The notes under the pieces were generated by a model. That model did not search any database, was not told the origin of the DNA, and was given only the letters and a program-made list of their open reading frames with translations. A program made the position numbers and the translations under genes. Shown piece after piece: positions 3,152-57,875 of a stretch of DNA of 64,000 nucleotides (its first letter is position 1; each line of letters opens with the position of its first letter). The stretch is from Parvibaculaceae bacterium (GTDB lineage: Bacteria; Pseudomonadota; Alphaproteobacteria; RS24): the NCBI GenBank assembly GCA_965243245.1, contig OZ251536.1:161638-225637 (forward strand). The letters are read 5' to 3'.

Positions 3152-3308
3152 TTTTCATCCGTAGTTGTGATGTCAACACAATATCGTGAATGGCGGGCAG
3201 GTCAATATAGTTATCCGCTTTGCGCATTTGGCTTGTGTTATTGGGTTTTATTATTTGACAATATGGCTTATTGATTTGCTAAATGGGTTTTGCGGAAAGT
3301 TAAAAAGC

Positions 3309-3800: not shown

Positions 3801-3894
3801 GTTGTTTTTTTCCTGTATGGGTTGATTTTACTTGCGAAAATTGCGCCAAAAGCCTAGGAAGTACATATCTGAACAATATTTATGAGGTGAGCAA

Positions 3895-4329: not shown

Positions 4330-4368
4330 GTCTCTTTTTTGGGGTGTTCCAATCAAAGGGTTGCGGAC

Positions 4369-7731: not shown

Positions 7732-8480
7732 CCAAGGAAAATGAATTGCGTCTTGGCGTTAATATTGATCATGTGGCAACGATTCGCAATGCGCGGGGAG
7801 GACGCCATCCTGAGCCATTACGGGCGGCGCAAATTGCTTCTCAAGCGGGGGCGGATGGGATAACGGCGCATTTAAGGGAAGACCGCAGGCATATTGGGGA
7901 TACTGATATTGAAATTCTTTCTGAAACGATTGAGCTGCCTTTGAATCTTGAAATGGCGGCCACCGATGAAATGCTTGCTCTTGCGTGCCGTCATAAGCCG
8001 CATGCTTGTTGTATTGTCCCTGAAAAACGCCAAGAAGTGACAACCGAAGGCGGCTTGGATGTCGCCGCAGAGCATAAACACCTTGCTTCATTTGTTGAAA
8101 AATTGACCACTAATGGCACGCGCGTATCTTTGTTTATTGACCCTGACCCGGTGCAAATTGCCGTTTCTAAGGCTCTTGGCGCCGCCGTGGTTGAATTACA
8201 TACAGGTGCTTATTGTGACGCTTACTTAAACAATCGGACGGACGCGCTTGCCTATGAGCTGGCCCGGTTGACAGAAGCTGCCCAACGCGCCAACGCCGCA
8301 GGGCTTGAAGTTCATGCCGGGCATGGGCTAACATATGAAATCGTCCAGCCGATTGCGCGCATTGGCGAAATTAAAGAGCTGAATATTGGTCATTTTTTGA
8401 TTGGTGAAGCGATTTTCATTGGCCTTGAAGCCGCTATTAAGCAAATGCGTAAGCTTATGAATGAAGCCCGCACCTCATGA
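7728..8480 (+). CDS. pdxJ: Pyridoxine 5'-phosphate synthase
   Basis: LGVNIDHVATIRNARGG..PEP, ITAHLREDRRHI, ELHTG, EVHAGHGL. Confidence 0.93.
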   Translation: MTKENELRLGVNIDHVATIRNARGGRHPEPLRAAQIASQAGADGITAHLREDRRHIGDTDIEILSETIELPLNLEMAATDEMLALACRHKPHACCIVPEKRQEVTTEGGLDVAAEHKHLASFVEKLTTNGTRVSLFIDPDPVQIAVSKALGAAVVELHTGAYCDAYLNNRTDALAYELARLTEAAQRANAAGLEVHAGHGLTYEIVQPIARIGEIKELNIGHFLIGEAIFIGLEAAIKQMRKLMNEARTS

Positions 8481-8902
8481 TTATTGGCATCGGCACCGAC
8501 ATGGTAGATGTGGGGCGAATTAAAAAGGCTCTTAATGATTATGATAGCCGTTTCAAAGATCGTGTTTTTACCTCAAAAGAGCAGGCATATGCTCAAAAAA
8601 AACCAAATCCAGTCGCGGCCTATGCAAAAAGATTCGCCGCAAAAGAAGCCTTCGCTAAAGCCCTTGGTGTAGGGCTACAGGGGCTGGGCGCGCCCCATTC
8701 AGATGGGCTCGCTTTTTTGGATATTGAAGTGGTCAATGACAAATATGGGAAGCCTGAAATTGTTATTGCTAAGGCAATTTTTGAAAAACTTCAGGCACGG
8801 CTTCATGATAAAAATAAAGCAGCACAAATTAAAATCCATCTTTCATTGAGTGATGAGTTACCTTTTGTGCTGGCTTATGTCATTATAGAAAAAATTTCAT
8901 AA
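8477..8902 (+). CDS. acpS: Holo-[acyl-carrier-protein] synthase
   Basis: MIIGIGTDMVDVGRI...RFAAKEAFAKALG. An ATGA overlap joins it to the pdxJ stop. Confidence 0.9.
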   Translation: MIIGIGTDMVDVGRIKKALNDYDSRFKDRVFTSKEQAYAQKKPNPVAAYAKRFAAKEAFAKALGVGLQGLGAPHSDGLAFLDIEVVNDKYGKPEIVIAKAIFEKLQARLHDKNKAAQIKIHLSLSDELPFVLAYVIIEKIS

Positions 8903-8929
8903 ATTTCCCCAAACTGATAGTCATTCTGA

Positions 8930-9676
8930 ATGTTCAAAAATAAAAACCAAGCTAAAGAGCCATCAAACAGCACATGGTATGAAAACATTAAGTCACTTAT
9001 TTTTGCTTTTGGGATTGCCCTGCTCATTAGAACACTCCTTTTTCAACCTTTCAGCATCCCTTCAGGCTCGATGTTGCCAACATTGTTGATCGGTGATTAT
9101 TTGTTTGTTTCTAAAACTGCTTATGGCTATTCCCATCACAGTATGCCTTTTAGCCCGCCTTTATTTAAGGGGCGGGTTTTTAAAGGCGATATTGAACGCG
9201 GCGATGTCGCTGTGTTTAAACTGCCGCGCGACGGGCGCACAGATTACATAAAACGGGTTATTGGACTGCCCGGAGACAGTATTCAGGTAAGAGGCGGGGT
9301 GGTATATATTAATGGCGCACCTGTAAAGCGTCAGCGCCGAGCTGTACCCGAAGGACTTCCCAAGACCACGATAGCATATCAAGAAACGCTCCCGAATGGA
9401 GTTAGCTATACGACATTGGATATGGGCTATCGTGCCATTGTTGATGATACGGGGGTTTATAGAGTCCCGCAACAGCATTATTTTGTCATGGGCGATAATC
9501 GTGACAATTCGCAAGATAGTCGGTTTTTGCGTTCAGTTGGCTATATTCCATACGAGAATTTTGTCGGCAAGGCTAGGCTTAAATTCTACTCATTTGATGA
9601 TGAGTCTCGGTTTTGGGAAGTTTGGAAATACCCTGTTGCTATACGCTGGGAGCGCATTTTTGGAGCCATTGAGTGA
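8930..9676 (+). CDS. lepB: Signal peptidase I
   Basis: SIPSGSMLPTL, YIKRVIGLPGD and GDNRDNSQDSR boxes, with an N-terminal TM segment. Confidence 0.92.
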   Translation: MFKNKNQAKEPSNSTWYENIKSLIFAFGIALLIRTLLFQPFSIPSGSMLPTLLIGDYLFVSKTAYGYSHHSMPFSPPLFKGRVFKGDIERGDVAVFKLPRDGRTDYIKRVIGLPGDSIQVRGGVVYINGAPVKRQRRAVPEGLPKTTIAYQETLPNGVSYTTLDMGYRAIVDDTGVYRVPQQHYFVMGDNRDNSQDSRFLRSVGYIPYENFVGKARLKFYSFDDESRFWEVWKYPVAIRWERIFGAIE

Positions 9677-10338
9677 AGCAAATAGAACAACATAAACTCA
9701 TTAAAAGGCTGGGCTATGATTTTCAAAACATCAAGCTATTTGAGGAAGCTCTGACACATGCCAGCGCGAATTCAGACTATAATAATGAACATTTAGAGTT
9801 TTTAGGAGATCGGGTGTTGGGATTGGTTATTGCTGATTATTTACGGCTGGCTTATCCCAAAGAGGCAGAGGGGAAATGGGCAAAACGTCTTGCTGTTTTG
9901 ACCAGCCGCGTTGTTTGTGCTGAGGTTGCGCAAAAATATAATATGCAAGCGGCTCTTATTGCTGATAAGAGAAATTGGCAAAATATGCCTTCTCATAATG
10001 TGATGGCTAATTTATGTGAAGCTGTAATTGCTGCTATTTATTTGGATGGAGGGTTGCTTTGCGCTCAAAATTTCATTTTCAAAGCTTGGCACGATATTTT
10101 TGAAAACCAGCCAGAGGTGCCTATTAGCGATAAAGAAGCGTTGCAGGAATTTGCTTTGGCAAATGGACTTGGCTTGCCGCGTTATAAAAAAATCAGTCAA
10201 ACGGGGCCAGACCATAAGCCTGAAATTACGGTGCTGGTCTCTTTGTCCGACAACCTATCTGCAAAGGCGAGTGAAAGTTCTAAAAAGCAAGCTGAACATA
10301 AAGCAGCGCAGGCTTTACTTGAAGCCTTAAAGAATTAG
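9673..10338 (+). CDS. rnc: Ribonuclease III
   Basis: ALTHAS...NEHLEFLGDRVLGL signature plus a C-terminal dsRBD (KQAEHKAAQALLEAL). Confidence 0.92.
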   Translation: MKQIEQHKLIKRLGYDFQNIKLFEEALTHASANSDYNNEHLEFLGDRVLGLVIADYLRLAYPKEAEGKWAKRLAVLTSRVVCAEVAQKYNMQAALIADKRNWQNMPSHNVMANLCEAVIAAIYLDGGLLCAQNFIFKAWHDIFENQPEVPISDKEALQEFALANGLGLPRYKKISQTGPDHKPEITVLVSLSDNLSAKASESSKKQAEHKAAQALLEALKN

Positions 10339-10344
10339 ACCATT

Positions 10345-11253
10345 ATGGTAATGAAAATGAATGATACAAGGTTTGGGTTTGTTGCGGTCATCGGGCCGCC
10401 TAATGCTGGGAAATCAACTTTAGCCAATGCTTTGATTGGACAAAAAGTATCTATTGTGACGCATAAAACGCAAACGACGCGGGCACGCTTGCGCGGCGTT
10501 GTTATAGAGGGCAAGGCGCAAATCATATTGGTTGATACGCCGGGTGTGTTTGATGGCCAGCGTAAAATGGACAGGGCTATGGTTCATGAGGCATGGGCAG
10601 GGGCAAATGATGCTGACGTTATTGCGGTCGTGCTGGATGTTAGCAAAAGGCTACCAAAGGAAACAGAAATGGTGCTTGCAGGTATTCAGGAAACGACAAA
10701 GCCTGTGATGCTTATTTTGAACAAAATAGATGCGGTGCGACATGAAACGCTTTTGGGCTTGGTCGATGAGTTGAGTAAAAAAGCAAATTTTAAAGAAATT
10801 TTCATGGTATCGGCTCTTAAAGAGCAAGGTTTGGAAGAGCTGCGTCAATGCCTTAGCATGGCTGTACCAGAGGGGGTTTGGCAATATCCAGAAGATATGG
10901 CGGCGGATGTACCTTCATTGTTTCTGGCGGCGGAGGTCACGCGCGAGAAACTATTTTTGCGAATGCATCAAGAGCTGCCTTATGCGCTGACGGTTGAAAC
11001 CGAAAAATGGACGCGCCAGAAAAATGGAAGTGTAAAAATCGAGCAAGTTATTTATGTGCGCCGCGATACGCAAAAAGCGATTATTTTAGGCAAAAATGGA
11101 CGCGCAATCAAAGAAATTGGACAACAGGCGCGGCTTGATATGGAAGAGATATTTGACCACCGTGTCCATTTATTTTTGTTTGTCAAAGTGCGTGAGAATT
11201 GGATTGAAGACCCAGAGCGCATGCGCATGATGGGGATTACCTCTTCATTTTAA
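10345..11253 (+). CDS. era: GTPase Era
   Basis: G1 GPPNAGKST, G3 DTPG, G4 NKID, and a KH domain at the C-terminus. It follows rnc. Confidence 0.93.
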   Translation: MVMKMNDTRFGFVAVIGPPNAGKSTLANALIGQKVSIVTHKTQTTRARLRGVVIEGKAQIILVDTPGVFDGQRKMDRAMVHEAWAGANDADVIAVVLDVSKRLPKETEMVLAGIQETTKPVMLILNKIDAVRHETLLGLVDELSKKANFKEIFMVSALKEQGLEELRQCLSMAVPEGVWQYPEDMAADVPSLFLAAEVTREKLFLRMHQELPYALTVETEKWTRQKNGSVKIEQVIYVRRDTQKAIILGKNGRAIKEIGQQARLDMEEIFDHRVHLFLFVKVRENWIEDPERMRMMGITSSF

Positions 11254-11271
11254 ACCAATCGGAGAACAGCC

Positions 11272-12027
11272 ATGGAGTGGCAGGCAGAAGCAACCGTTCT
11301 AAGTTCACGCCCGCATGGTGAAACAGCCGCCATTATTGAGGTTATCACAGAAGAAAATGGCCGTTTTGCGGGGCTTGTGCGCGGCGGTATTGGACGGCGC
11401 TTAAGACCTGTCTTACAAATGGGTAATCGAGTGCAAGCATGTTGGCGTGCCAGATTATCTGCTCACCTTGGTACTTTTACAGTTGAGCCGATTAAATTGC
11501 GGGCCGGTTTAGCGTTGCATGATCCTTTGCATCTGGCAGCTCTTAGGGCCTTATGCGATATGGCGCGAATTTTCCCCGAACGCCAAGCCTATCCGCGCTT
11601 GGCACGGGCTTTTGAGAGCTTAATTGAATGTCTTGATAGTCCGTCTGTTTGGCCCGCCGTTTTTATAAGGTTTGAGTTGGCTATGTTGGATGAATTGGGA
11701 TTTGGGCTTGATTTAACCCGTTGTGCGGCAACTGGAAGTCATCATAATTTGACGCATATTTCGCCCACAAGCGGGCGGGCGGTATCGGCAGTTGCGGCTG
11801 AACCCTATTTGGATAGGCTTTTTATCATCCCGCCGTTTTTTATTGACCCTTTGGCTCAGGTAAGAGCCGCTGATCTGAAGGCTGGTTTTGAGATAACCGA
11901 ATATTTTTTAAGTAAGCGACTTTATTATTCTATGGATGAAACCATCCCTGAGAGCAGAGCAAGAATGCTTTTTTTGTTGTTGCGTGATAGCGCGCTGGCG
12001 AATCTTGATATAAAAGCGCATGACTGA
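11272..12027 (+). CDS. recO: DNA repair protein RecO
   Basis: Conserved position after era, matching size, and an N-terminal OB-fold-like sequence (EATVLSSRPHGETAAIIEVIT). Confidence 0.85.
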   Translation: MEWQAEATVLSSRPHGETAAIIEVITEENGRFAGLVRGGIGRRLRPVLQMGNRVQACWRARLSAHLGTFTVEPIKLRAGLALHDPLHLAALRALCDMARIFPERQAYPRLARAFESLIECLDSPSVWPAVFIRFELAMLDELGFGLDLTRCAATGSHHNLTHISPTSGRAVSAVAAEPYLDRLFIIPPFFIDPLAQVRAADLKAGFEITEYFLSKRLYYSMDETIPESRARMLFLLLRDSALANLDIKAHD

Positions 12028-14275
12028 AGTAACATTGCCAGAGGACGGCGCGGCGAAAAACATTACCTTGCGCGAAGCATTAGAAACGCGTTATTTGGCT
12101 TACGCGCTTTCCACCATCACAAACCGTGCCTTGCCAGATGCGCGTGATGGCTTGAAACCGGTCCACCGCCGCCTGCTTTTTGCTATGCGTCAGCTTAAGC
12201 TAGACCCAGATCAGGGGTTTAAAAAATGCGCGCGCGTTGTTGGGGATGTGATCGGGCGGTATCACCCGCATGGCGATCAGGCGGTATATGACACGATGGT
12301 GCGGTTGGCACAAGATTTTGCTGTTCGCTATCCTTTAGTGGATGGGCAGGGTAATTTTGGCAATATTGACGGGGATAGTGCTGCTGCGATGCGTTACACC
12401 GAAGCGCGGATGACCGAAATTGCGAGCTTGTTGCTACAAGACCTTAATCAAGATACGGTTGATTTCAGAGTGACATATGATGGTGAGGATGAAGAGCCAA
12501 TTGTCTTGCCGGGGGCATTTCCGAATCTTTTGGCAAATGGTTCAACAGGTATTGCCGTTGGTATGGCGACTAATATTCCGCCCCATAATGTCAGTGAATT
12601 ATGTCATGCGGCATTACATCTTATTAAAGCACCAAATGCTCGCATTGATAGATTATTTGAATATGTGAAGGGGCCTGATTTTCCAACCGGCGGGATTATT
12701 GTTGAACCGCTGGAAAATATTCGCCAGTGCTATGCAACAGGGCGAGGGTCGATACGTCTGCGTGCCCGTTATGAGGTAGAAAACCTTGAGCATGGAACAT
12801 GGCAAATTATTATTACTGAAATTCCATATCAGATTCAAAAATCGCGCTTGATTGAAAAAATTGCCGAGCTGATGCAAGCCAAAGCACTACCAATGCTCGA
12901 TGATATTCGTGATGAGAGTGCCGAAGATATCAGACTCGTTATTATCCCTAAAAGCAAAAATATGCAGCCAGAGCAAGTTATGTCTGTTTTATTCAGGCAA
13001 ACCGATTTAGAAACGCGTTATTCTGTCAACCTCAATGTCTTGAATTCAGAAGGCGTGCCGGGTGTTTTGAATTTGCGAGAATTGCTTTTGGAATGGCTTA
13101 ATCACCGTAAATTGGTTTTAATGCGCAAAAGTAAATTTCGGCTTAGAAAAATTGATGCGCGGCTTGAAGTTTTGGATGGGTATTTGATTGCTTATCTTAA
13201 TCTTGATGAGGTTATTCGCATTATTCGTGAAGAAGATGACCCTCAGGCTGAAATGATGCAAGCTTTTGGATTAAATCAAACTCAGGCGGAAGCCATTTTG
13301 AATATGCGCCTTCGCGCTTTGCGTAAGCTTGAAGAAATGATTATAAAAACGGAGCATATAAGCCTTGAAGATGAACGCAAAGAACTCAACACTTTGCTGG
13401 GTTCAGACGAAAATCAATGGCACATTATCGGTGATGAGGTTAAGGCCCTTAAAAAAACTTATGCTCTTAAATCTTTGCTTGGACAACGGCGCACAAGTTT
13501 TGCCCTGCTTAATGAAGAAAATGAAGCACCGCTTGATATACTGATTGAAAAAGAACCTATAACTATTATCTGTTCGCAAAAGGGCTGGGTGCGTGCGATG
13601 AAAGGGCATTTAGAAAATGTTAAGGATGTAAAATATAAAACGAGTGATACGGCAAAATTTGTTTTTCATGCTCAAACGACTGATAAATTGGTTGTTATTG
13701 CATCTAACGGACGCGCTTATATTATTGAGGCGAGTAAGCTGGCGAGTGGGCGCGGCAATGGAGAACCTCTTTCTTTGATGATAGACTTGCAATCTTGCGA
13801 TGAGATTATTCAGATTTTCAGTTATGATGAAGCCCGCAAACTTGTTATGGCAACCCGAACGGGTAACGGATTTGTGGTTGAAGAAAATGAACTTTTCAAT
13901 AATCGTCGTGCGGGTAAGCAAATTGTTAATGTTAAATCCTCTGATGAGCTCTTATGCTGTGTGCCGGTTGTCGGAACGCATCTTGCGGCGTTAGGTGAAA
14001 ACCGCAAATTATTAATTTTTGAATTATCTGAGCTTCCGCTTATGACGCGCGGTAAGGGCGTTCGGTTGCAAAAATACACCGATGGCGCACTGGCTGATAT
14101 TCGGTGTTTTGATAAAAATGACGGCTTGACGGTGATTGATAAAGCGGGACGCTCGCGTTTGTTCGAAAACTTGAAAGAATGGGAAGGTATCCGCGCACAA
14201 GCGGGCCGTATTCGCCCCAAAGGGTTTCCCGCTAATGGTCTTATGGGGCCTGCTTTTAAAAACAAAATGGCATAA
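12020..14275 (+). CDS. parC: DNA topoisomerase IV subunit A
   Basis: LPDARDGLKPVHRRLLFAM, GRYHPHGDQAVYDTMVRLAQ, AAAMRYTEARM. The call of ParC over GyrA rests on size (751 aa) and the degenerate C-terminal repeats. Confidence 0.88.
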   Translation: MTEVTLPEDGAAKNITLREALETRYLAYALSTITNRALPDARDGLKPVHRRLLFAMRQLKLDPDQGFKKCARVVGDVIGRYHPHGDQAVYDTMVRLAQDFAVRYPLVDGQGNFGNIDGDSAAAMRYTEARMTEIASLLLQDLNQDTVDFRVTYDGEDEEPIVLPGAFPNLLANGSTGIAVGMATNIPPHNVSELCHAALHLIKAPNARIDRLFEYVKGPDFPTGGIIVEPLENIRQCYATGRGSIRLRARYEVENLEHGTWQIIITEIPYQIQKSRLIEKIAELMQAKALPMLDDIRDESAEDIRLVIIPKSKNMQPEQVMSVLFRQTDLETRYSVNLNVLNSEGVPGVLNLRELLLEWLNHRKLVLMRKSKFRLRKIDARLEVLDGYLIAYLNLDEVIRIIREEDDPQAEMMQAFGLNQTQAEAILNMRLRALRKLEEMIIKTEHISLEDERKELNTLLGSDENQWHIIGDEVKALKKTYALKSLLGQRRTSFALLNEENEAPLDILIEKEPITIICSQKGWVRAMKGHLENVKDVKYKTSDTAKFVFHAQTTDKLVVIASNGRAYIIEASKLASGRGNGEPLSLMIDLQSCDEIIQIFSYDEARKLVMATRTGNGFVVEENELFNNRRAGKQIVNVKSSDELLCCVPVVGTHLAALGENRKLLIFELSELPLMTRGKGVRLQKYTDGALADIRCFDKNDGLTVIDKAGRSRLFENLKEWEGIRAQAGRIRPKGFPANGLMGPAFKNKMA

Positions 14276-32151: not shown

Positions 32152-34263
32152 ATGAGCACAGTTATGATGCTTATCATCGGTGCTGGCGTCCTTGCCATTA
32201 TATATGGTCTTTGGGCAATCCAGAGTATTCTGGCGGCTAGTGCTGGGAATGAGAAAATGCAGGAAATTGCTTCTGCCATTCAATCTGGCGCAAGTGCCTT
32301 TCTTAACCGCCAATATCGAGCCATTGGGTTCGTTGGTATTATTATTGCCATTATTGTGGCTTATCTGCTGGGCGTGAAAGTTTCAGTCGGGTTTATTATC
32401 GGCGCCACTCTTTCAGGGGCCGCAGGATATGTTGGCATGTTGGTTTCAGTGCGCGCGAATGTGCGTACAGCACAAGCAGCCAGCGTGAGCCTCGCCAGCG
32501 GTTTGTCTATTGCCTTTCGCTCAGGTACCGTAACAGGCATGCTGGTGGCTGGATTAGCCCTGCTTTCTGTGACCGTTTATTTTTATATTCTTACAGGTCC
32601 CCTTGGGCTGGAGGCTTCATCGCGTGAAGTTATTGACTCGCTTGTAGCACTTGGCTTTGGGGCTTCTTTGATTTCTATCTTTGCGCGTCTGGGCGGCGGT
32701 ATCTTCACCAAGGGAGCTGATGTTGGGGGCGACCTTGTCGGGAAAATTGAGGCGGGCATTCCAGAAGATGACCCGCGTAACCCGGCCACAATCGCTGACA
32801 ATGTCGGCGATAATGTCGGCGATTGCGCAGGCATGGCGGCAGATTTATTCGAAACCTATGCCGTAACAATTGTGGCAACAATGGTTTTGGCGGCGATTTT
32901 TTTCCAAAGCAGTCTTGAGCTTATGATTTACCCACTGGCAATTGGGGCGACTTGTATCGTGACATCAATTATTGGAACTTTCTTTGTTCGTCTTGGGTCT
33001 AATAACTCCATCATGGGCGCGCTTTATAAAGGTTTCATCGCGGCGGCTATTTTCTCGCTGATAGCTCTGTATTTCGTGACAGACCATCTAATCGGCTTGG
33101 ATGTCGTGCGAACAGTCGGTGAAGATTTATCCTTTACAGGTTTGGACTTGTATATTTGCGGTGTTCTGGGATTGGTGATAACAGGATTAATCATTTGGGT
33201 GACCGAATATTATACAGGGGTGGATTATCGTCCCGTTAAATCAATCGCGGCGGCGTCAGAAACAGGCCATGGAACCAATGTTATCCAAGGTCTGGCGGTT
33301 TCTATGGAAGCCACAGCACTGCCAGCTATCGTTATTGTTGCTGGTATTTTAGCTACTTATAATCTGGCGGGTTTGTTCGGCATTGCCATAGCTGTTTCAA
33401 CGATGTTGGCTTTGGCGGGGATGGTTGTGGCTCTTGATGCCTTTGGCCCCGTAACAGATAATGCTGGTGGTATCGCAGAAATGGCTGAATTGCCAGAAGA
33501 CGTGCGTAACACAACGGATGCTCTTGATGCTGTTGGTAACACGACTAAAGCTGTTACTAAGGGCTATGCTATCGGCTCGGCGGGGCTTGGGGCTTTGGTT
33601 TTATTTGCCGCTTATACAGAAGATTTAAAATACTTCTCTTCTAACTCTGACACATATAGTTATTTTGCGGGCGTTAATGTTGATTTTTCATTGTCTAACC
33701 CCTATGTGGTGGCAGGGCTATTTGTTGGTGGTTTGCTACCCTATTTATTCGGTGCTATGGGCATGATGGCGGTTGGCCGTGCGGGGGGTGCGATTGTTGA
33801 AGAAGTACGCCGCCAGTTCAAAGAAAAGCCCGGCATCATGAAAGGCACTGAGAAACCTGATTATGAGGCCGCTGTCGACCTTTTAACGCGGGCGGCTATT
33901 AAGGAAATGATTATTCCTTCAATGTTGCCGGTTTTGTCTCCGATTGTATTTTATTTTATCATTGAGGCGATAGCTGACCGCTCGGCGGCTTTTTCTGCTT
34001 TGGGAGCGATGCTATTGGGAGTCATTGTGACGGGTCTGTTTGTGGCGCTTTCTATGACGGCTGGTGGCGGAGCTTGGGATAATGCCAAGAAATATATTGA
34101 AGATGGTCATCATGGCGGCAAGGGCTCGCAGGCTCATCAAGCGGCCATAACGGGTGACACTGTTGGCGACCCTTATAAGGACACAGCCGGGCCTGCTATT
34201 AATCCAATGATTAAAATCACGAATATTGTGGCTTTGTTGTTCTTGGCGATTTTATCGCACTAA
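32152..34263 (+). CDS. hppA: Membrane-bound proton/cation-translocating pyrophosphatase
   Basis: [27 protein letters not shown] and [18 protein letters not shown] signatures. 703 aa, polytopic. Confidence 0.93.
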
Positions 34264-34281
34264 ATAATAAGCTTATTGGAT

Positions 34282-34306
34282 AAAACTAATTCCCGCCCCC
34301 CGGCAC
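34282..34306. repeat. Left copy of a 25-bp direct repeat: aaaactaatt[c]ccgccccccggcac
   Basis: Matches 35260-35284 at 24 of 25 positions. On the reverse strand it reads ...VPGGGN-stop, a duplicate of the bamE 3' end. Confidence 0.85.
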
Positions 34307-34438
34307 CCTGTATGCCTCAGATTTATTGGCAACTGCAATCGGTTTTGGTACTCCCTATAAAAATAGACTTACCCTATTTGATCCTTTGTGACATACTGTG
34401 TCCAGAACCATGTTTGATTTTTGGAAGGGAATAAAACA

Positions 34439-34699
34439 ATGAATACGGTTGTCCAAATAAATGATTTAAATCTGGATGAGTTAAATAAAATCAAGAAGGC
34501 TATCGACAAAAATATTTCAATTATCGCGGAGATGGTGAAACATGCGAACCACTTAGCTGATATTATCTCTAATGCAGAAGTTGGGAGTGACACCCAGAGT
34601 GAACTTAGAAAACTTCAAGATGAGACATTGAAATCACTTGAAAATTTAGTTGATACAACGGATAAATTATTTGTTGCTTACGTTAGATTGTTTGGGTAA
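34439..34699 (+). CDS. Hypothetical small soluble protein (86 aa, helical / coiled-coil-like)
   Basis: ATG preceded by ggaaggga. Sequence MNTVVQINDLNLDELNKIKKAIDKNISIIAEMVKHANHL... matches no family I recognise. Confidence 0.45.
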   Translation: MNTVVQINDLNLDELNKIKKAIDKNISIIAEMVKHANHLADIISNAEVGSDTQSELRKLQDETLKSLENLVDTTDKLFVAYVRLFG

Positions 34700-34724
34700 T
34701 AAAGACACATAGATAGAAAGATTA

Positions 34725-35066
34725 ATGGTGGAAAAACAGGCAAACGAAAATCAAGAACCTGAAAAATCTGATTCTAATTTAATAACGAAAAGAATAGAAG
34801 AAAAATCTACTAGTCTAACGAAAGAAGAACCTCCAACTTATTTCGATGCAGAGAAGGCTGGGTTTGAAATGTCTGGCGAGAGGCTTAAAATTGCCAAACT
34901 CGTTCTTTATGGTCTTTTCTTTTTAGCGTTAGTGTGCATGGGGCTTCTCGCGTGTTTAGATCTTGACAATAAAAGGGAAATCTTATTTTCGACGATTATT
35001 GCAATATTCAGTACGGCAACATTAGTGATTGGGTTTGTCGCAGGCTCAAGCATAGATAGAAAGTGA
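34725..35066 (+). CDS. Hypothetical small membrane protein (113 aa): charged N-terminal half and two predicted TM helices
   Basis: LKIAKLVLYGLFFLALVCMGLLACL and ILFSTIIAIFSTATLVIGFVAGS are hydrophobic stretches. No family recognised. Confidence 0.45.
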   Translation: MVEKQANENQEPEKSDSNLITKRIEEKSTSLTKEEPPTYFDAEKAGFEMSGERLKIAKLVLYGLFFLALVCMGLLACLDLDNKREILFSTIIAIFSTATLVIGFVAGSSIDRK

Positions 35067-35259
35067 ATATTTGGAAGGAAGATATAATAGATAATAAACT
35101 AAGGGGCAGATCACTCAACGGTTACCAAAGCCGTTCAACATGCTGGCTAATGAATTAGCGCAGGGTAGTTCGAGATATCACCCAAACCGCAAGCCGTGCC
35201 TCCACAAACGCAGAGGAAAAAGTGAACGCCAAAAATGGTTAAACATATATATAACCTTA

Positions 35260-35284
35260 AAAACTAATTGCCGCCCCCCGGCAC
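35260..35284. repeat. Right copy of the 25-bp direct repeat, overlapping the real bamE stop codon
   Basis: aaaactaatt[g]ccgccccccggcac. On the reverse strand it encodes the last six codons of the 35264-35740 gene (VPGGGN-stop). Confidence 0.85.
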
Positions 35285-35740
35285 ATTACTCGGACCGGCT
35301 GAATTGAAACGCCCCAAATTGCCAAATAATTGACCAAGAACCGTCAACTCCTTACCACGTGTCACGGTCTTGCGCTTAACATAATCAACAATATTGCCAT
35401 CTTCTAAACCATAATGCGCAATATTTGTGACGGTATTTTTTTCATCAAAATAAATAGCAACAATTTTGCGGGTTTTTTCTACAGGTGCTCTGTAAAGATA
35501 AGCCTCGACTTGGCTTGAAATATAATAAAATATCGAGGCATCAATTGTCGCAATCGTGGAAGGGGAACCCATAATAATACGGACATTCTCTTTGTTTGTT
35601 TTACCCATTTCGACTTGGTTTAACTTTTCTTGAACGAGGATATATCCGCGATTATGAATGACCGGTGAACAGGCGATGAGTGCCGACACACTAAGGCTTG
35701 CGAGTAAAATGCCAAATTTATTTTTTTTGAATTGGTACAT
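35264..35740 (-). CDS. bamE: Outer membrane protein assembly factor BamE (SmpA/OmlA family lipoprotein)
   Basis: Lipobox LIAC, then RGYIL...L..V..G.T.E.V....GSPS, typical of BamE/OmlA. Confidence 0.75.
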   Translation of the reverse strand: MYQFKKNKFGILLASLSVSALIACSPVIHNRGYILVQEKLNQVEMGKTNKENVRIIMGSPSTIATIDASIFYYISSQVEAYLYRAPVEKTRKIVAIYFDEKNTVTNIAHYGLEDGNIVDYVKRKTVTRGKELTVLGQLFGNLGRFNSAGPSNVPGGGN

Positions 35741-35875
35741 GAGGTTTTATCTCTAGGTTTTGTATGGTTTTTAAATATCGTATAGAGTAACGCAATTGGT
35801 TATATTGATATAGGTTTCTTGACCATGAATGCAAGTGAAGAGACCTTTGGCAGATGATTTTTTAACGGATGTAAT

Positions 35876-36433
35876 GTGAAGCTATTATACTTAGTTTTGG
35901 GTTTGTTTAAGACAAATCGCAACAGGCTCTATGAAAAGTATTTGTCGGTTTATACAGCGATTGTGAAACAGGCACGCACGACCAGCCTCTATGGTGATGG
36001 GATGGCACCAGATAGCTTTGACGGGCGGTTTGATATGCTGGTACTGCATGTGTATCTGATGTTGAAGCGTTTGAAAAAAGACGGACCGGCACGCGGCGGT
36101 GCCGGTCAGGTTATTTTTGATCTATTTTTCCAAGATATGGACCAAGTTCTGCGTGAGATGGGGGTTGGTGATCTTGGCGTGGGCAAAAAAGTTAAAAAAA
36201 TGGCAGAAGCCTTTTATGGCAGAGTTCATGCTTATGATACGGCTTTTGAACAAAATGATGAGGCGGTCTTATTGGCGACGCTTGCGCGCAATTTTTATCC
36301 CTCATCCCCAGAGTGCTTAAAGTTGGATATGGCGTCTTATGCGCATGCGCTAGATGCTTATTTGGATGGTGTTGAGAGTGAAAAAATTTTGACGCGTGAT
36401 GTGTTTAACGGATTTATGTGGGGGCTATCATGA
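35876..36433 (+). CDS. Ubiquinol-cytochrome c chaperone (Cbp3-like) family protein
   Basis: LY..IV.QAR...LY...MAPDSFDGRFDMLVLHVYLMLKRL. It sits in the conserved alphaproteobacterial position between bamE and yceD/plsX. Start uncertain (GTG). Confidence 0.75.
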   Translation: MKLLYLVLGLFKTNRNRLYEKYLSVYTAIVKQARTTSLYGDGMAPDSFDGRFDMLVLHVYLMLKRLKKDGPARGGAGQVIFDLFFQDMDQVLREMGVGDLGVGKKVKKMAEAFYGRVHAYDTAFEQNDEAVLLATLARNFYPSSPECLKLDMASYAHALDAYLDGVESEKILTRDVFNGFMWGLS

Positions 36434-36618
36434 GGGTGCTTGAATTTAGCCGTAGTAGGATTGATTTAAAAAAAATACCACAAAAGGGACTGCTAATGCA
36501 TGAAATTGCAACGGATGAAGAGCTTGAAGCATTGGTGGTATGATTTAAAATTAACGCTGTTGTGAGCCTTGAGTTTGCGGCTGATATTATATCTTGGAAG
36601 AAACAAGCGATAGCTTGA
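36430..36618 (+). pseudogene. Decayed yceD/DUF177 gene (in-frame TGA plus loss of the C-terminal two thirds)
   Basis: My translation is MRVLEFSRSRIDLKKIPQKGLLMHEIATDEELEALVV-stop(36541)-FKINAVVSLEFAADIISWKKQAIA-stop(36616). It resembles the N-terminal third of alphaproteobacterial DUF177 proteins. No further coding sequence follows before plsX. Confidence 0.55.
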
Positions 36619-39628: not shown

Positions 39629-39705
39629 CGGAGCGTAGCGCAGTCTGGTAGCGCACTTGTCTGGGGGACAAGGGGTCGTGGGTTCAAATCCCGCCGCTCC
39701 GACCA
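39629..39705 (+). tRNA. tRNA-Pro (anticodon GGG)
   Basis: Hand-folded: acceptor CGGAGCG, D arm GCGC-AGTCTGGTA-GCGC, anticodon arm CTTGT-CTGGGGG-ACAAG, T arm with TTCAAAT loop, encoded CCA. Confidence 0.9.
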
Positions 39706-40180
39706 AGGTAGCGTGATATTGCCCATGTTAGAGTGTCAGTTCCAATAACAATGCCAAGTTCTTTAAGACTCTTATCTGTCATTATTAATCCCCTTCATAT
39801 TTTGTTGGTTTAGCCGCCAGACAATGAGATAAAAAATTCACCTTATTCTTTTGACCTTTTTGGACGCAAAATTCAATAAGATGTTGAAATATACAAACAA
39901 ACATAGAAAAGGGTAACACTTATTTGGTTTTAATCAACAGGAAGACTATAAGAATGTAAATTAATATGCTTGGACGCGAGCGGAGAGAATGAGAGCAAAA
40001 CCGATTGCATCTAGCAGTCCAAATATGTAGGCTGGTATATGGAATATGTGCCTCTTAAACTGTTTGGATAGGAAAACTGATGACATCTATTTTACCGATT
40101 GTTATTTTTATCGTTGTTTTTGGCGTTTTGAACTTTGTTCAGTTTGGCAGTGTGGATTAAGTCGTCTTCAGCACTTGATA

Positions 40181-40417
40181 TTAATGCTTGGTCTGAGTGT
40201 CGGGGCGTTGCATCCACCAGATAATGGCACCGGCGGGTATCGCCCATCCCATGCCCGCGACCATATAAAAAACAAATTCAATGAATTTATTTGTTGGCAT
40301 CCATGTGCTCGCCCCAAAAGCGACAATCAACACGCCATAGAAAACCAGCAGACTTATAATCAGGACCATGCCAATAAATTTACGGACTCTGATGGGTAAA
40401 AGGGGGGGACGTTTCAT
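40181..40417 (-). CDS. DUF2842-family small membrane protein
   Basis: MKRPPLLPIRVRKFIGMVLIISLLVFYGVLI...GMGWAIPAGAIIWWM. Divergent from ctaA, as is typical in alphaproteobacteria. Confidence 0.75.
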   Translation of the reverse strand: MKRPPLLPIRVRKFIGMVLIISLLVFYGVLIVAFGASTWMPTNKFIEFVFYMVAGMGWAIPAGAIIWWMQRPDTQTKH

Positions 40418-40472
40418 ATCGCTCTCCTATATGCTATGTGTGCAATCTAGTGCTTTTTAGAGTGTTTTCCCA

Positions 40473-40538
40473 GTCAAAAAATTGTCAAAAAATTGTCAAA
40501 AAATTGTCAAAAAATTGTCAAAAAATTGTTAAAAAATT
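40473..40538. repeat. 11-bp tandem repeat gtcaaaaaatt x6 (helically phased A6 tracts)
   Basis: Units begin at 40473, 40484, 40495, 40506, 40517 and 40528; the last is gttaaaaaatt. The array lies in the divergent DUF2842/ctaA intergenic region. Confidence 0.95.
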
Positions 40539-40612
40539 CTGCTCAACGCGTTTGTATAATGTTGTATAGCTTTGTATAGTAGAGCGCGTTAAATTCTGGC
40601 GAAGATTTAAAA

Positions 40613-41698
40613 ATGGAAAAAACAACTCAATATATAACCGCCCCGCATATACCGCCCGCCCATAAAGCTATCAGCATCTGGCTATTTACTGTCTGTGCGT
40701 TTGTCGTGCTGATGGTGCTCGTTGGCGGCTTGACGCGCCTGACCGATGCTGGCTTGGCGATCACAGAATGGAAACCCATTACGGGTGTGTGCCCGCCTCT
40801 GACAATAACAGAATGGGAAGTCGAATTTGAAAAATACAAAACCATTCCTGAATTCCAACTTGTGAACAGCGATTATTCATTGGAAGAGTTTAAATTCATT
40901 TATTGGTGGGAGTGGGGGCATCGCCAACTCGGACGTGTTGTCGCGATGGTGTTCTTGATACCGTTTATTTGGTTTGCTATGCGCAAAAAAATTCCGCAAG
41001 GGTTTTATGGGCCTTTGGTCAGCTTGTTTTTGCTAGGCGGATTACAGGGCTTCATGGGGTGGTATATGGTTAAAAGCGGGCTGACAGAGCGCATAGATGT
41101 TAGTCAATATCGGTTGGCTATGCATTTAGGATTGGCGTTGCTTATTTTTTCATATACGTATTGGTTGGCTCTGGATTTGTGGCGCGGGGGAGGCGTCATT
41201 AAAAAACCAGAGGGGAAAAAACCAGAGGGGAAAAAACCGAAGCCGCAAAAACTGGAGGGGCGTGTCTTGGCCAGTTTTATTGTGCTGATGACGTTCCTGC
41301 AATCGATGATGGGCGCGCTGGTTGCGGGACTTGATGCCGGAAAATCTTATACAGATTGGCCCTATATGGACGGGGCTTTAATGCCTTCCGGCTTGTTGGA
41401 TATGTCGCCTGTAGCGCGCAATTTTTTTGAAAATTACCTCACCGTTCAGTTCGACCATCGCATTGGAGCTTATTTGCTGTTAATGATGGTTTTTGTTCAT
41501 CTTTACGCGCAGTACAAATCCCAATCACCAACGCTGAAAACAGCATATCTAGTGGCATTTGCCGTCACCAGCCAAGCGGTTCTGGGCATTATAGCATTAA
41601 GGCTGGCGGTTCCCTTATTTTGGGGCGCCGTGCATCAAATTGGGGCGGTGATGGTTTTGGCGGTGGCTATAACACATTTACAGATGACGCGGTCATAA
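40613..41698 (+). CDS. ctaA: Heme A synthase (COX15/CtaA)
   Basis: GGLTRLTDAGLAITEWKPITG, WEWGHRQLGR and FDHRIGAY histidine motifs, with eight TM helices. An internal 15-bp repeat at 41201-41238 encodes KKPEGKKPEGKKP. Confidence 0.88.
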   Translation: MEKTTQYITAPHIPPAHKAISIWLFTVCAFVVLMVLVGGLTRLTDAGLAITEWKPITGVCPPLTITEWEVEFEKYKTIPEFQLVNSDYSLEEFKFIYWWEWGHRQLGRVVAMVFLIPFIWFAMRKKIPQGFYGPLVSLFLLGGLQGFMGWYMVKSGLTERIDVSQYRLAMHLGLALLIFSYTYWLALDLWRGGGVIKKPEGKKPEGKKPKPQKLEGRVLASFIVLMTFLQSMMGALVAGLDAGKSYTDWPYMDGALMPSGLLDMSPVARNFFENYLTVQFDHRIGAYLLLMMVFVHLYAQYKSQSPTLKTAYLVAFAVTSQAVLGIIALRLAVPLFWGAVHQIGAVMVLAVAITHLQMTRS

Positions 41699-41778
41699 AT
41701 GACGCGGTCATAAATGACGCGGCCACAAATGACGCGGCCACAAATGACGCAGTCACCAATGACGCCGTCATAAATGAT
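41686..41778. repeat. 15-bp tandem repeat gacgcggtcataaat, about 6.2 copies, beginning inside the last codons of ctaA
   Basis: Units begin at 41686, 41701, 41716, 41731, 41746 and 41761. The middle copies are degenerate (ggccacaaat / agtcaccaat). The ctaA stop (41696-41698) lies in unit 1. Confidence 0.95.
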
Positions 41779-54235: not shown

Positions 54236-54312
54236 CGGAGTTTGGCGCAGTCTGGTAGCGCACCTGGTTTGGGACCAGGGGGTCGCAGGTTCGAATCCTG
54301 CAACTCCGACCA
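54236..54312 (+). tRNA. tRNA-Pro (anticodon UGG)
   Basis: Hand-folded: acceptor CGGAGTT, D arm GCGC-AGTCTGGTA-GCGC, anticodon arm CCTGG-TTTGGGA-CCAGG, T loop TTCGAAT, encoded CCA. Confidence 0.9.
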
Positions 54313-54323
54313 TTTGCGCTAAA

Positions 54324-54505
54324 TTATAATCTAGCCTTATAATCTAGCCTTATAATCTAGCCTTATAATCTAGCCTTATAATCTAGCCTTATAATCTAGC
54401 CTTATAATCTAGCCTTATAATCTAGCCTTATAATCTAGCCTTACAATCTAGCCTTACAATCTAGCCTTACAATCTAGCCTTACAATCTAGCCTTACAATC
54501 TATCC
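54324..54505. repeat. 13-bp tandem repeat x14: nine copies of ttataatctagcc, then five copies of ttacaatctagcc (the last is degenerate)
   Basis: I counted unit by unit from 54324. The array starts 12 bp after the tRNA-Pro(UGG) CCA end. Confidence 0.95.
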
Positions 54506-56460: not shown

Positions 56461-56507
56461 TTTTAAGACACTGTTTTAAAACAGTGTTTTAAAACAGTGT
56501 CTTAAAA
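56461..56507. terminator. Inverted/direct repeat cluster (ttttaagacactgtttt / aaaacagtgtttt / aaaacagtgtcttaaaa), likely a bidirectional terminator
   Basis: 56461-56477 is the exact reverse complement of 56491-56507, and 56469-56488 is a perfect 20-bp palindrome. The cluster sits between convergent tRNA-Arg and the 56502-57794 gene and overlaps that gene's stop codon. Confidence 0.55.
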
Positions 56508-57794
56508 CGGATTTGTGTAATTGAGTAATAATGATTTGGTTTTTTTATCATTATTAAACTGCAAAATATTCGAGTTTGTCTTGATTTGTGAATATCCGGC
56601 AATCAGGCGGAAATTTTTTAAACCGCGATGGATAAGGCTACCCATAAGCTGATAATTCACATTATAGGCGGTAATATCATCGCGCCGAATACGTTGTGCG
56701 CCAGAATCTTCTGCCCTATGGTCGCTCTCGCCAACGCGGTACCCTAAGCTGATGGTTTGTCCACGGGTAATCATTCCCTGTAGTGAGATGGCGCCATATT
56801 TGCTTTCTTTAGAGTTGTATTGTGCTGAAAGCAGGGTTGCTTCCACGTCTTGCCAGCTGGCAAATATTGTGGTGCGCCAATGCTTTGTTAAAGCAAAGCT
56901 AACGCCGCCTCTAGCTGCAACGGTTTCACTGTCTGAATTATCGGCTGATTGATATAGTGTGCTTTTTTGATAGTCGCGCTTATTGGCTGAAAAACTCATG
57001 AAAATGAAGCTTTGAGCGAAGAATCTTTTATTAATATCTAAACCGACACTCTCATAGATTGTTTTGGGCTGTGTTTTGCTATCAATTTCGCCATAGGTTA
57101 GTTTTGGAATAATTTCTAACCCAAGCGGGTTAAGTTTGGCGCCGATTGTCAGATCATAACTGGTATATTCCATGAATTGAGTATCGCTATCAGATACTTT
57201 TGAAGCATTGAGGCTGGTGAAAAGCTTATCAGCATTTTGATTGAGGAGGTCATATTCGCTATAAAGTCCTATGCCTGAGGTGAGGGCTTTATCATCGACA
57301 GGCAGATCAAATTCACTGGTGCCATTGGAGCTGATAAAATTAGACGTGCCTTGGGGCAATTCTGCTTGCCCTGATTCTGGAAAGCTGTTCACATTCTCGC
57401 CGTCCAGATAACCAAAACTGAAACTCATAAGAAAATTCCAACGCGCACGGCGTCTAGTGAGCGTACTCAGCATTGCCGCTACCTCGCGCGCAATATTATC
57501 GGGCAAGGGCAACACATTCAAGGCGTGCAATTCGCCGCGTGCTTGTGGGTCACTCCCCATTGCCATAAGGATACGCGCACGCATAAGCCGCGCCGGCAGA
57601 TTAGTCGGCTGCTTTACAAGCACCCGTTCAATCGCCCCAAGAGCCGCCTTTGGCTTACCACGTTGAAGACGCTCGGTGGCATATTGGCGATTGAGCTGGA
57701 TGTTATCAGGGTCTTTAAGAATCTCTTGATAACTAATCTCGGACACAGAAATTGATGGCACGATAAGGGTGAGAGCAAAAACTGCGTTTTTCAT
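56502..57794 (-). CDS. Outer-membrane protein with an N-terminal TPR-like region and a C-terminal beta-barrel; Slam/DUF560-like (candidate type XI secretion component)
   Basis: Signal peptide MKNAVFALTLIVPSISVSE. Helical TPR-like segment (LQRGKPKAALGAIERVLVKQPTNLPARLMRARILMAMGS). Barrel-like alternating pattern from RWNFLMSFSFGYLDGENVN to the C-terminal ...SNILQFNNDKKTKSLLLNYTNPF. Start chosen at ATG 57794; three further in-frame ATGs lie upstream in the 21-bp repeat. Confidence 0.6.
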   Translation of the reverse strand: MKNAVFALTLIVPSISVSEISYQEILKDPDNIQLNRQYATERLQRGKPKAALGAIERVLVKQPTNLPARLMRARILMAMGSDPQARGELHALNVLPLPDNIAREVAAMLSTLTRRRARWNFLMSFSFGYLDGENVNSFPESGQAELPQGTSNFISSNGTSEFDLPVDDKALTSGIGLYSEYDLLNQNADKLFTSLNASKVSDSDTQFMEYTSYDLTIGAKLNPLGLEIIPKLTYGEIDSKTQPKTIYESVGLDINKRFFAQSFIFMSFSANKRDYQKSTLYQSADNSDSETVAARGGVSFALTKHWRTTIFASWQDVEATLLSAQYNSKESKYGAISLQGMITRGQTISLGYRVGESDHRAEDSGAQRIRRDDITAYNVNYQLMGSLIHRGLKNFRLIAGYSQIKTNSNILQFNNDKKTKSLLLNYTNPF

Positions 57795-57875
57795 TATTTT
57801 GTCTCCAGACCCCATTATTCTGTCTCCAGACCCCATTATTCTGTCTCCAGACCCCATTATTCTGTCTCCAGACCA
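57792..57875. repeat. 21-bp tandem repeat x4 at the junction of the FecR-domain gene and the Slam-like gene
   Basis: Units at 57792, 57813, 57834 and 57855 (cattatt[c/t]tgtctccagacc[c/a]). On the coding (minus) strand each unit reads GGTCTGGAGACAGAATAATG, giving GGAG, an 8-nt spacer, and an ATG overlapping a TAA. Confidence 0.95.

Follow-up and report, generated by a model that had tools for sequence, protein, structure and literature searches.

A two-gene, AT-rich islet bounded by a duplicated bamE tail in a Parvibaculaceae genome, and its relatives in phages

Cis-mobilizable elements (CIMEs) form a defined class of integrated elements that have kept attL and attR and have lost the genes for integration and transfer (PMC5704250). 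When the element e14 integrates into icd, it replaces the 3′ end of that gene with its own copy, so that a duplicated gene tail is left at the far junction (PMC6379469, citing Hill et al. 1989). Phage morons, in turn, spread among genomes via non-homologous exchange, and a differing GC content is one of their defining traits (PMC3594210). Here we describe an islet at positions 34282-35284 of a 64,000-nt stretch of DNA from a Parvibaculaceae bacterium (GCA_965243245.1, contig OZ251536.1, positions 161,638-225,637 of the forward strand; hereafter, the window), which lies between hppA and bamE, is bounded by a 25-bp direct repeat that includes the 3′ end of bamE, and encodes two small proteins (open reading frames ORF1 and ORF2). 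The islet is probably a decayed integrative element, either CIME-like or a prophage remnant, with a phage accessory cassette whose products may be a membrane effector and its cytosolic partner. As such, it would be a clean and small case of a known process, namely integration at a gene end followed by decay to an att-flanked stub; among the integration-site papers listed by one full-text search, none had bamE as the target. Of greater use is what was learned about the cargo, in which two apparent singletons were tied to a conserved gene pair found in phages, prophages, and AT-rich chromosomal islets of small alphaproteobacterial genomes.

The islet resembles a CIME in that its direct repeat includes the 3′ end of the target gene and brackets ~950 bp without a recombinase; however, CIMEs were defined for decayed integrative and conjugative elements and integrative and mobilizable elements of Firmicutes and are usually several kilobases long, whereas the relatives of the islet cargo point to a phage origin and no cognate integrase is known for it. 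Like e14 and phage 21 in icd, and like “grounded” prophages, the islet lies at the end of a protein-coding gene and has a near-identical gene tail at the far junction. Unlike e14, which duplicates 163 bp and keeps its integrase and many genes, it duplicates 25 bp and holds two genes.

The two copies of the repeat, AAAACTAATT[C/G]CCGCCCCCCGGCAC, are located at 34282-34306 and 35260-35284 and are identical at 24 of 25 positions, and the likeness between them breaks off sharply at both edges of the 25-mer. A search allowing up to three mismatches recovered only these two sites in the window and none in 100 dinucleotide-preserving shuffles, and the core of the 25-mer had no match in metagenome or viral contigs. 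Both copies can be read on the minus strand as VPGGGN-stop. In the right, attR-like copy, identified by repeat comparison, these are the functional last six codons and stop of bamE (35264..35740, minus strand; 158 aa; Pfam BamE, E 5.8e-14), the outer-membrane assembly lipoprotein gene that forms the target and the right host flank. The left, attL-like copy, identified by repeat comparison and minus-frame translation, is a detached bamE pseudo-tail; the minus-frame translation upstream of it (…KSEAYR followed by VPGGGN-stop) bears no further similarity to BamE. It begins 18 bp after the stop codon (34261-34263) of hppA (32152..34263, plus strand), the left host flank, a 703-aa ORF encoding an H+-translocating pyrophosphatase with an intact C-terminus that is 79-86% identical to, and syntenic with, the hppA of Parvibaculales relatives. 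The tail itself is native to bamE, since the proteins of relatives finish in …GVPGSGQ and …GAPGGQ. The first-pass annotation had reported the near-identical repeat, had taken the right copy for the true end of bamE and the left for a second tail just past hppA, and had read the arrangement as integration into a gene 3′ end with a replacement end; the coordinates and translation agree with this, and the geometry is that of e14 in icd (PMC6379469). The sole mismatch between the copies (GGG versus GGC) is synonymous and leaves the VPGGGN-stop reading unchanged. This is compatible with the integration model, yet uninformative, because by our own count ~39% of all single substitutions that the 25-mer could undergo are silent anyway.

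A different explanation of the repeat is that the 25-mer is a functional, terminator-like hairpin that was recruited twice, and not an integration footprint. On the minus strand, the right copy indeed scored as terminator-like in a consensus scan, with a small hairpin (5-bp stem) followed by a T-rich tract (TGCCGGGGGGCGGCA ATTAGTTTTT, 35283-35269), and the canonical bidirectional terminator of relatives, described below, is absent at the window junction. Nevertheless, this explanation is very improbable: the identity at 24 of 25 positions and the sharp edges indicate common descent rather than convergence, the mismatch in the left copy weakens the stem, nothing upstream of that copy needs termination on the minus strand, and other copies are absent from the 64 kb, from viral contigs, and from metagenome contigs.

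To place the junction among relatives, BamE was used to scan one genome per species, yielding 80 loci. The order ubiquinol-cytochrome-c chaperone, bamE, hppA, thiL was kept among these genomes, with hppA and bamE convergent. The window comes from a Parvibaculales-like alphaproteobacterial lineage of which few genomes have been sampled. The nearest matches were two Parvibaculales/Parvibaculaceae metagenome-assembled genomes, with BamE 68-71% and HppA 86% identical to those of the window; among metagenome contigs, no BamE relative was closer than 57%, and exact-protein look-ups with BamE and ORF2 returned no record. In the seven closest genomes (L001-L007), the stop-to-stop gap is only 72-89 bp and contains neither an insert nor a homologue of ORF1 or ORF2, and the gap of the closest relatives carries a canonical bidirectional intrinsic terminator (AAAACCCCGA…TCGGGGTTTTTTT). 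Searches by tBLASTn with ORF1 and ORF2 over 160 genome and metagenome loci gave no match, and no DNA similar to the segment was found in them either. Because the closest relatives have a short gap and no insert, the segment is a lineage-specific insertion with its empty site at family-level distance. The insertion envisaged in the first-pass annotation thus stands, as does its expectation of convergent hppA and bamE at an empty site; the gap of ~20 bp that it expected there does not, being 72-89 bp long and occupied by a terminator.

Beyond the closest genomes, the hppA/bamE gap is shorter than ~115 bp in most relatives (L008-L077). Elsewhere, it hosts unrelated, ordinary genes of host-like GC content, recognized by eye: a class II fructose-bisphosphate aldolase (~1.2 kb), CobT/CobS (~2 kb), PPK2, a DUF-like membrane protein, and Usp with a Kef-like antiporter (~2.8 kb). 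New genes are therefore tolerated in the gap and have entered it repeatedly.

The inner 953 bp of the islet have a GC content of 0.367, compared with a mean of 0.450 in the window; an equally low GC content was found in 0.16% of windows of the same size, all of which overlap the islet locus, and the islet is the most AT-rich such stretch in the 64 kb. A left non-coding part (34307..34438, plus strand; GC 0.379), in which a GGAAGG ribosome-binding site lies 9 nt ahead of the ATG of ORF1, is followed by ORF1 (34439..34699, plus strand), which encodes an acidic protein of 86 aa (isoelectric point 5.0), by ORF2 (34725..35066, plus strand), which encodes a membrane protein of 113 aa, and by a right non-coding part (35067..35259; GC 0.409) with a small hairpin at ~35117-35135. 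Both ORF1 (GC 0.333) and ORF2 (GC 0.374) lie below the right non-coding part in GC content. In these respects, the first-pass annotation was accurate: it had noted the AT-richness of the insert, the positions and lengths of both ORFs (which agree with the ORF list), the higher GC content of the right-hand stretch, and the hairpin.

Both ORFs carry a coding signature, in a single frame only. The codon-usage log-likelihood per codon was 0.35 for ORF1 and 0.23 for ORF2 in their own frames and negative in the other five, and these scores fall in the range of the 34 long ORFs of the window (0.30 ± 0.06), i.e., they are host-like. Single-sequence AlphaFold2 models gave a putatively cytosolic two-helix hairpin for ORF1 (helices 7-45 and 50-85; predicted local distance difference test score, pLDDT, 84) and, for ORF2, a disordered, acidic N-terminal half followed by helices 51-78 and 84-110 (pLDDT 66), in agreement with the earlier description of ORF1 as helical and of ORF2 as having a charged N-terminal half and two transmembrane (TM) helices. 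Along ORF2, an acidic N-terminal region of ~50 aa is followed by an ERLKIAK motif, by the two TM helices, and by a C-terminal tail that is short and basic (IGFVAGSSIDRK).

The non-coding parts of the insert folded no better than shuffles (z -0.24 and -1.2 for the right part, 0.08 for the left), and Rfam models gave nothing at E ≤1 on 33500-36500; a structured RNA or attC-like element was dropped as a candidate because folding equaled that of shuffles. Neither a canonical promoter upstream of ORF1 nor a canonical terminator after ORF2 was found in a consensus scan of the islet. Six-frame fragments of the non-coding parts had no match in PHROGs, and thus contain no recognizable remnant of a phage gene. 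Together with the absence of a match of either ORF to any recombinase family, this agrees with the earlier view of the islet as recombinase-less. As a further observation, an exact 13-bp direct repeat (CATAGATAGAAAG, 34708-34720 and 35051-35063) brackets ORF2 almost exactly and could mediate its loss; however, repeats of this kind are not rare by chance. One arose in 2.6% of Markov simulations, and among real windows of 1 kb ~16% carry a repeat of at least 13 bp, so that it was rejected as a significant feature.

Neither ORF had a match above cut-off in Pfam, NCBIfam, PHROGs, or PADLOC, and a similarity of ORF1 to Pfam YkyA was rejected as being helical in nature and below the cut-off (24.8 versus 28.8 bits). 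A word-indexed search of 5.8 billion proteins returned, for ORF1 and ORF2, the window’s own proteins alone. An exhaustive HMMER search of 1.84 billion representative proteins recovered four homologues of ORF1 (87-99 aa, 30-41% identity, E 6e-7 to 3e-4), and a profile search added three more, for a set comprising P0004-P0010; another hit (P0003, E 9e-12) was rejected as a 62-aa repeat protein that multiplies a single 23-residue match. The ORF1 family shares a C-terminal motif, LVDxTDKLFxAY. In Foldseek comparisons with PDB and viral structures, ORF1 matched only helical hairpins of a generic kind and ORF2 matched none, with no hit at E ≤0.001, and a profile search of PDB gave coiled-coil noise only.

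The genomic neighborhoods of the ORF1 homologues revealed that the two genes form a conserved pair. Counting only homologues whose DNA was retrieved, each is followed by a co-directional gene for a protein of 107-117 aa with two TM helices, -4 to +13 bp away, with the exception of one strain (L161) described below. This pairing was seen in four lineages besides the window (L162-L165, L166, L169, and L170). The two genes are 25 bp apart in the window and 9-13 bp apart in L162, L165, and L169, whereas those of L166 and L170 overlap by 4 bp. The partners share the architecture of ORF2, i.e., a charged N-terminus, the motif (S/T)xRLxI(A/T)(K/R), two hydrophobic helices, and a short basic tail. Those of the L162 and L165 groups and of L169 are 41-45% identical to ORF2 and have the C-terminal sequence …IGFVAGSSID…, while those of L166 and L170 are 26-28% identical to ORF2 and end in …GFVIGYYFKNK; the divergence of ORF1 and that of ORF2 run in parallel across the lineages. 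The ORFs had been called orphans in the first-pass annotation, but ORF1 belongs to a small family and an ORF2-like partner lies downstream of it in five lineages. Both genes are thus recognized by codon signal and AlphaFold2 models as well as by homologues in the case of ORF1 and homologous partners in the case of ORF2.

Chromosomal relatives of the pair come from five co-occurring strains (L161-L165) of an alphaproteobacterium with a 1.84-Mb genome, in which the pair is flanked by a substrate-binding-protein gene and queF and is likewise rich in AT. The gene order dapA-smpB-udg-folK-rpoZ-relA is common to the window (1032-6525) and L161-L165 (~7900-12300), with proteins 38-55% identical; the two hosts are distant relatives that carry the cassette at different loci. 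In strain L161, the ORF1 homologue is kept and ~400 bp with the membrane gene are gone. This is a clean loss in one of the five strains (L161 6300-6331 versus L162 6313-6710), with microhomology at the borders limited to cta/tta. Upstream of the ORF1 homologue in L162 and L165 (5876-5957), a 22-bp tandem pair (TAATTATTGTTATTGACAATTA / TAATTATTTTTATTGATAATTA) includes the sequence TTGACA, and a third partial copy lies nearby; these operator-like repeats suggest a regulated promoter. A loosely similar sequence, TTTATTGGCAACT, is present in the window at ~34322-34334.

Several members of the family reside in phages. L166 belongs to a 39-kb temperate-phage contig (L166/L171) in which the pair is ~750 bp from the 5′ end of a tyrosine integrase gene (PHROG integrase, E 7e-36) and which also encodes a glucosaminidase endolysin and an Ant-like anti-repressor. 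The pair follows a gene for a HicB-like protein (recognized by eye; it matches phrog_12841) and lies between the integrase and Ant-like genes, in the lysogeny region, with the integrase separating it from the lysis genes. The contig of P0010 carries the small and large terminase genes, and in L170 an HNH-endonuclease-like fragment lies upstream of the pair and a hairpin after it (both by eye). On the same phage contig as the L166 pair, a diversity-generating retroelement (L171 1-5300; bAvd, RVT_1 reverse transcriptase) adjoins the gene for a 1587-aa PBECR1-domain protein.

The membrane partners of L166 and L170 match phrog_20796 (E 5e-13 and 3e-13, respectively), a family found in 39 (pro)phage loci of IMG/VR and in Klebsiella phage P7641. 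Among 21 inspected phrog_20796 loci, 16 have an overlapping or abutting gene for a helical protein before the phrog_20796 gene, mostly of ~90-105 aa (two at 132-142 aa), and all five of the helical partners tested match phrog_21707. In three other loci (L173, L176, and L182), an Rz-like spanin is encoded upstream instead (phrog_13, best E 6e-62); in P7641, the pair follows the lysis cassette (holin, endolysin, Rz/Rz1; by eye) and precedes an HNH endonuclease gene. The phrog_21707/phrog_20796 pair therefore has the layout of ORF1/ORF2, a helical protein of ~90-105 aa followed, overlapping or tightly spaced, by a two-TM protein of ~115-140 aa with a charged N-terminus, but the window ORFs themselves reach neither family, ORF2 giving no match at E ≤1. 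The link between ORF2 and phrog_20796 is weak at the profile level and rests mainly on the shared ORF1-family partner and on architecture; it leans on the L166 and L170 pairs because in each of them an evident ORF1-family protein stands next to an evident phrog_20796 protein. Similarly, hhalign of the ORF1 family against phrog_21707-type proteins was colinear and not significant (probability 4%). The cargo thus probably belongs to the uncharacterised families phrog_20796 and phrog_21707, extended by a new alphaproteobacterial subfamily, and the enterobacterial homologues make its function testable in laboratory strains.

These homologous pairs in phage contigs lend support to the suggestion of the first-pass annotation that the insert holds mobile cargo. 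At the level of more direct matches, the searches were negative: blastn of the 1-kb segment against phages and plasmids gave no match, scans of viral contigs with single ORF1 proteins and with the window-type ORF2 alignment gave nothing, the ORF1 family alignment has no stretch conserved enough for such a scan, and complete genomes of E. coli contain no DNA match to a prophage pair.

In several features, the pair is moron-like. Morons are small add-on units of deviant GC content that spread horizontally and often encode small envelope proteins, among them HK97 gp15, an inner-membrane protein for superinfection exclusion (PMC3594210). The low GC content holds in 11 of 11 contexts of the pair, and in L166, P7641, and prophages its members lie as add-ons between phage modules, while the window copy is chromosomal. 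In enterobacterial, lambdoid-type prophages, the pair lies just after Rz, the place where lambda carries bor. The cassette differs from these morons in having two coupled genes instead of one, and its sequence resembles neither gp15 nor bor nor any other named moron.

In the proposed origin of the islet as a decayed integrative element, a circle of foreign DNA would have entered the terminal 25 bp of bamE by Campbell-type recombination. The enzyme would most likely have been a tyrosine integrase, and the attP of the circle would have resembled the end of bamE. Each side would thus have received a copy of that end (attL- and attR-like), leaving BamE intact. The carrier would have been a temperate phage or a related integrative element targeting the bamE tail; a recombinase and the rest of the element would later have been lost by deletions, giving a recombinase-less stub similar to a CIME or a “grounded” prophage, and the retained cargo would be a moron-like cassette of two co-directional, tightly spaced genes. 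An origin from a temperate phage or integrative element is the simplest because relatives of the cargo live in phages, in one case beside an integrase. Other sources of the islet were rejected. A transposon or insertion sequence would not account for it, as there is no transposase among the islet ORFs and no terminal inverted repeat inside the direct repeats; target-site duplications of transposons are, moreover, much shorter than 25 bp. An integron cassette was rejected for want of an attC-like structure and of intI, and an assembly artefact because the repeat is merely 25 bp long and lies within a 1.9-Mb contig.

Several observations weigh against the origin from an integrative element. Within the 64 kb of this 1.9-Mb genome that the window covers, neither inspection by eye nor a tBLASTn search with the L166 integrase revealed an integrase; the same search was negative at all other loci as well, and the non-coding parts of the insert hold no phage-gene remnant in the six-frame PHROG comparison; for these reasons, the integrase step is drawn from the geometry of the locus. 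Excising one repeat copy together with the insert leaves a 22-bp gap without a terminator, whereas relatives have ~75 bp with one, and because of this mismatch at least one further event is needed, e.g., a deletion of ~55 bp, or else an ancestor unlike the sampled relatives. Those relatives are distant (BamE 68-71%, HppA 86%), with no empty site from the same species and no full-length element seen. Finally, the L161-L165 islet has no long flanking direct repeat. Like the integrase step, the deletions that trimmed the element and the disappearance of the ancestral terminator are inferred.

Some of the same observations are what would be expected if the cassette had been captured by illegitimate or short-homology recombination, without a site-specific recombinase, the 25-bp duplication being a by-product of repair; examples would be a stray phage or moron fragment joined at a break in the bamE tail, or a RecA-mediated single crossover of a circle that shared ~25 bp. 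Neither an integrase nor an integrase remnant was found in the islet or window, unrelated genes have entered the space between hppA and bamE in several other lineages, the islet in L161-L165 lacks a flanking repeat, and the missing ancestral terminator suggests a messier event than clean integration; morons are also known to move by non-homologous exchange (PMC3594210). Even so, capture of this kind, although a real rival, is less likely. The exact-edged 25-bp copy, which preserves six codons and the stop, is expected of site-specific integration (PMC6379469) and not of break repair. The terminal inverted repeats of a transposon are absent inside the direct repeats, and known transposon target-site duplications are, as said, much shorter. 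The origin from an integrative element that entered the bamE tail thus remains the preferred reading.

The AT-richness of the insert is of no help in dating it. Across all 11 contexts, including three phage or prophage genomes, the pair lies 10-18 GC points below its surroundings (0.28-0.41 versus 0.38-0.52; for example, 0.28/0.38 in L166, 0.36/0.45 in P7641, and 0.39/0.51 in L177). Low GC content is intrinsic to the cassette and is not a clock for recent arrival because the cassette is AT-rich everywhere, including in phages.

The five co-occurring strains allowed the rate of change of the pair to be compared with that of its neighbors. Synonymous divergence (dS) in the flanking genes was 0.02-0.07, and the ratio of non-synonymous to synonymous divergence (dN/dS) was 0.02-0.27. 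In the ORF1 homologue, dS was as in the flanks, but dN/dS was 1.1-2.7; in the ORF2 homologue, dN/dS was 2.0 overall, reaching 4.2 over the first 42 codons but only 1.0 over the TM part. The dN of the pair was 10-100x that of the flanking genes, and the non-synonymous excess over the flanks was highly significant (Fisher p 4e-8 to 2e-5). As this fast non-synonymous change is joined to a long-term constancy of length, order, and motifs, it points to diversifying or strongly relaxed selection, which would be focused on ORF1 and on the cytoplasmic N-terminus of ORF2. The combination of phage contexts, AT-rich chromosomal islets, and fast amino-acid change is typical of genes in phage-host or phage-phage conflict.

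Alternatively, both ORFs could be functionless relics for this host, phage cargo drifting neutrally toward loss, and the islet could be debris. The dN/dS among strains is ~1 or higher and indistinguishable from 1 in two of three comparisons, one strain (L161) is already without the membrane gene, no canonical promoter or terminator was found in the window islet by consensus scan, and the 13-bp direct repeat around ORF2 could mediate its deletion. Against this, neither ORF is disrupted, and the in-frame codon signal of both matches that of core genes; five lineages at 26-45% identity have kept the motifs of the pair together with its length, order, and tight spacing, which requires long-term purifying selection on parts of the proteins; and the contrast between a conserved second TM helix and C-terminus and a variable N-terminus (dN/dS 1.0 versus 4.2) argues for structured selection and not uniform decay. 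The 13-bp repeat, as noted above, is not rare by chance. It is thus rather doubtful that the pair is a mere relic.

If the pair is functional, ORF2 would be an inner-membrane effector with a cytoplasmic N-terminal region and two TM helices, and ORF1 would bind the fast-evolving N-terminal region and hold or regulate ORF2; the two would act in phage-host or phage-phage conflict, through abortive infection, as a toxin-antitoxin-like or addiction module, or in superinfection exclusion. With modest confidence, the pair may be read in this way, as a membrane effector controlled by a cytosolic partner, because the genes appear translationally coupled with the soluble gene first, diverge in parallel, and show the rate pattern described for ORF2, and because the pair occupies its characteristic position in prophages and L161 has kept the soluble gene alone. 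Toxin-antitoxin and abortive-infection pairs such as RexAB and GhoT/GhoS are likewise made up of two small, co-directional, coupled genes, soluble first, on prophages or islets, and retention of the soluble gene with loss of the membrane gene, as in L161, is the tolerated direction of loss in toxin-antitoxin pairs. Unlike such pairs, ORF1 has no DNA-binding domain, and there is no homology to toxin-antitoxin or defence families in Pfam, NCBIfam, or PADLOC. The first-pass annotation had speculated on toxin-antitoxin, abortive-infection, or holin-like modules, and this functional guess is still a hypothesis.

A role in the timing of lysis was weighed as well, in which the pair would be an antiholin, a holin-like protein, or a spanin accessory, and the chromosomal copies inert passengers. 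The phrog_21707/phrog_20796 pair does lie directly after the holin, endolysin, and Rz/Rz1 genes in P7641 and in several prophages; ORF2 has two TM helices in an N-in/C-in topology like that of class II holins; and the ORF1 homologue of L166 has a weak, Rz-like match in PHROGs (E 9e-4). However, the carrier phages encode complete lysis cassettes already, which makes a lysis-holin role unlikely; the L166 pair lies in the lysogeny region, with the integrase between it and the lysis genes; and the slot after Rz is also that of bor, the lysogenic-conversion gene of lambda. The charged domain of ORF2 is N-terminal and long, and its C-terminal tail has 3-6 residues, whereas holins typically have a charged C-terminal tail; moreover, no endolysin gene occurs near the chromosomal islets, including that of the window. 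A part in lysis timing is accordingly a poor explanation for the pair.

The effector-and-partner reading has its own difficulties. No similarity was found to known toxin-antitoxin, defence, or holin families (Pfam, NCBIfam, PADLOC), and the structure searches were non-specific. The excess of dN/dS over 1 is marginal, with a binomial p of 0.03 in one strain pair and 0.17 and 0.58 in the others, and the genes may be decaying neutrally on that timescale. Alignment by hhalign of window-type ORF2 with phrog_20796-type proteins gave a probability of 29-42% and E 3-6e-4 over 25 columns, covering the pre-TM motif and the first TM helix. It is nonetheless possible, and is put forward tentatively, that ORF1/ORF2 and phrog_21707/phrog_20796 together constitute an unrecognised, widespread phage-borne conflict module in which a membrane effector is gated by a co-evolving helical-hairpin partner, and which survives as a two-gene islet in streamlined marine Alphaproteobacteria. 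Should the pair turn out to serve in defence, exclusion, or addiction, two PHROG families now labeled “unknown” would gain a function.

Other repeats were observed elsewhere in the window. At 342-1002, 5.1 tandem copies of a 130-bp unit are 99% identical; the array begins within the first ~11 nt of a tRNA-Ser(GCT) gene (262-352, minus strand), each unit consisting of the 5′ end of tRNA-Ser and its upstream region. A tRNA-Pro(GGG) gene (39629-39705) is followed by ~900 bp without a convincing ORF (39706-40612; slightly low GC, ~0.41), where no direct repeat of the tRNA end was found; an 11-bp tandem repeat (GTCAAAAAATT, six copies, 40473-40538) ends this stretch, upstream of a heme A synthase-like ORF. 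A tandem array of 6.5 copies of a 15-bp unit is located at 41680-41777. Twelve base pairs after a tRNA-Pro(TGG) gene (54236-54312), 13.8 copies of a 13-bp unit (TTATAATCTAGCC) form an array with 99% identity (54324-54502), and at 57792-57874 four copies of a 21-bp unit give the ORF at 56502-57857 its N-terminal MGSGDRI repeats.

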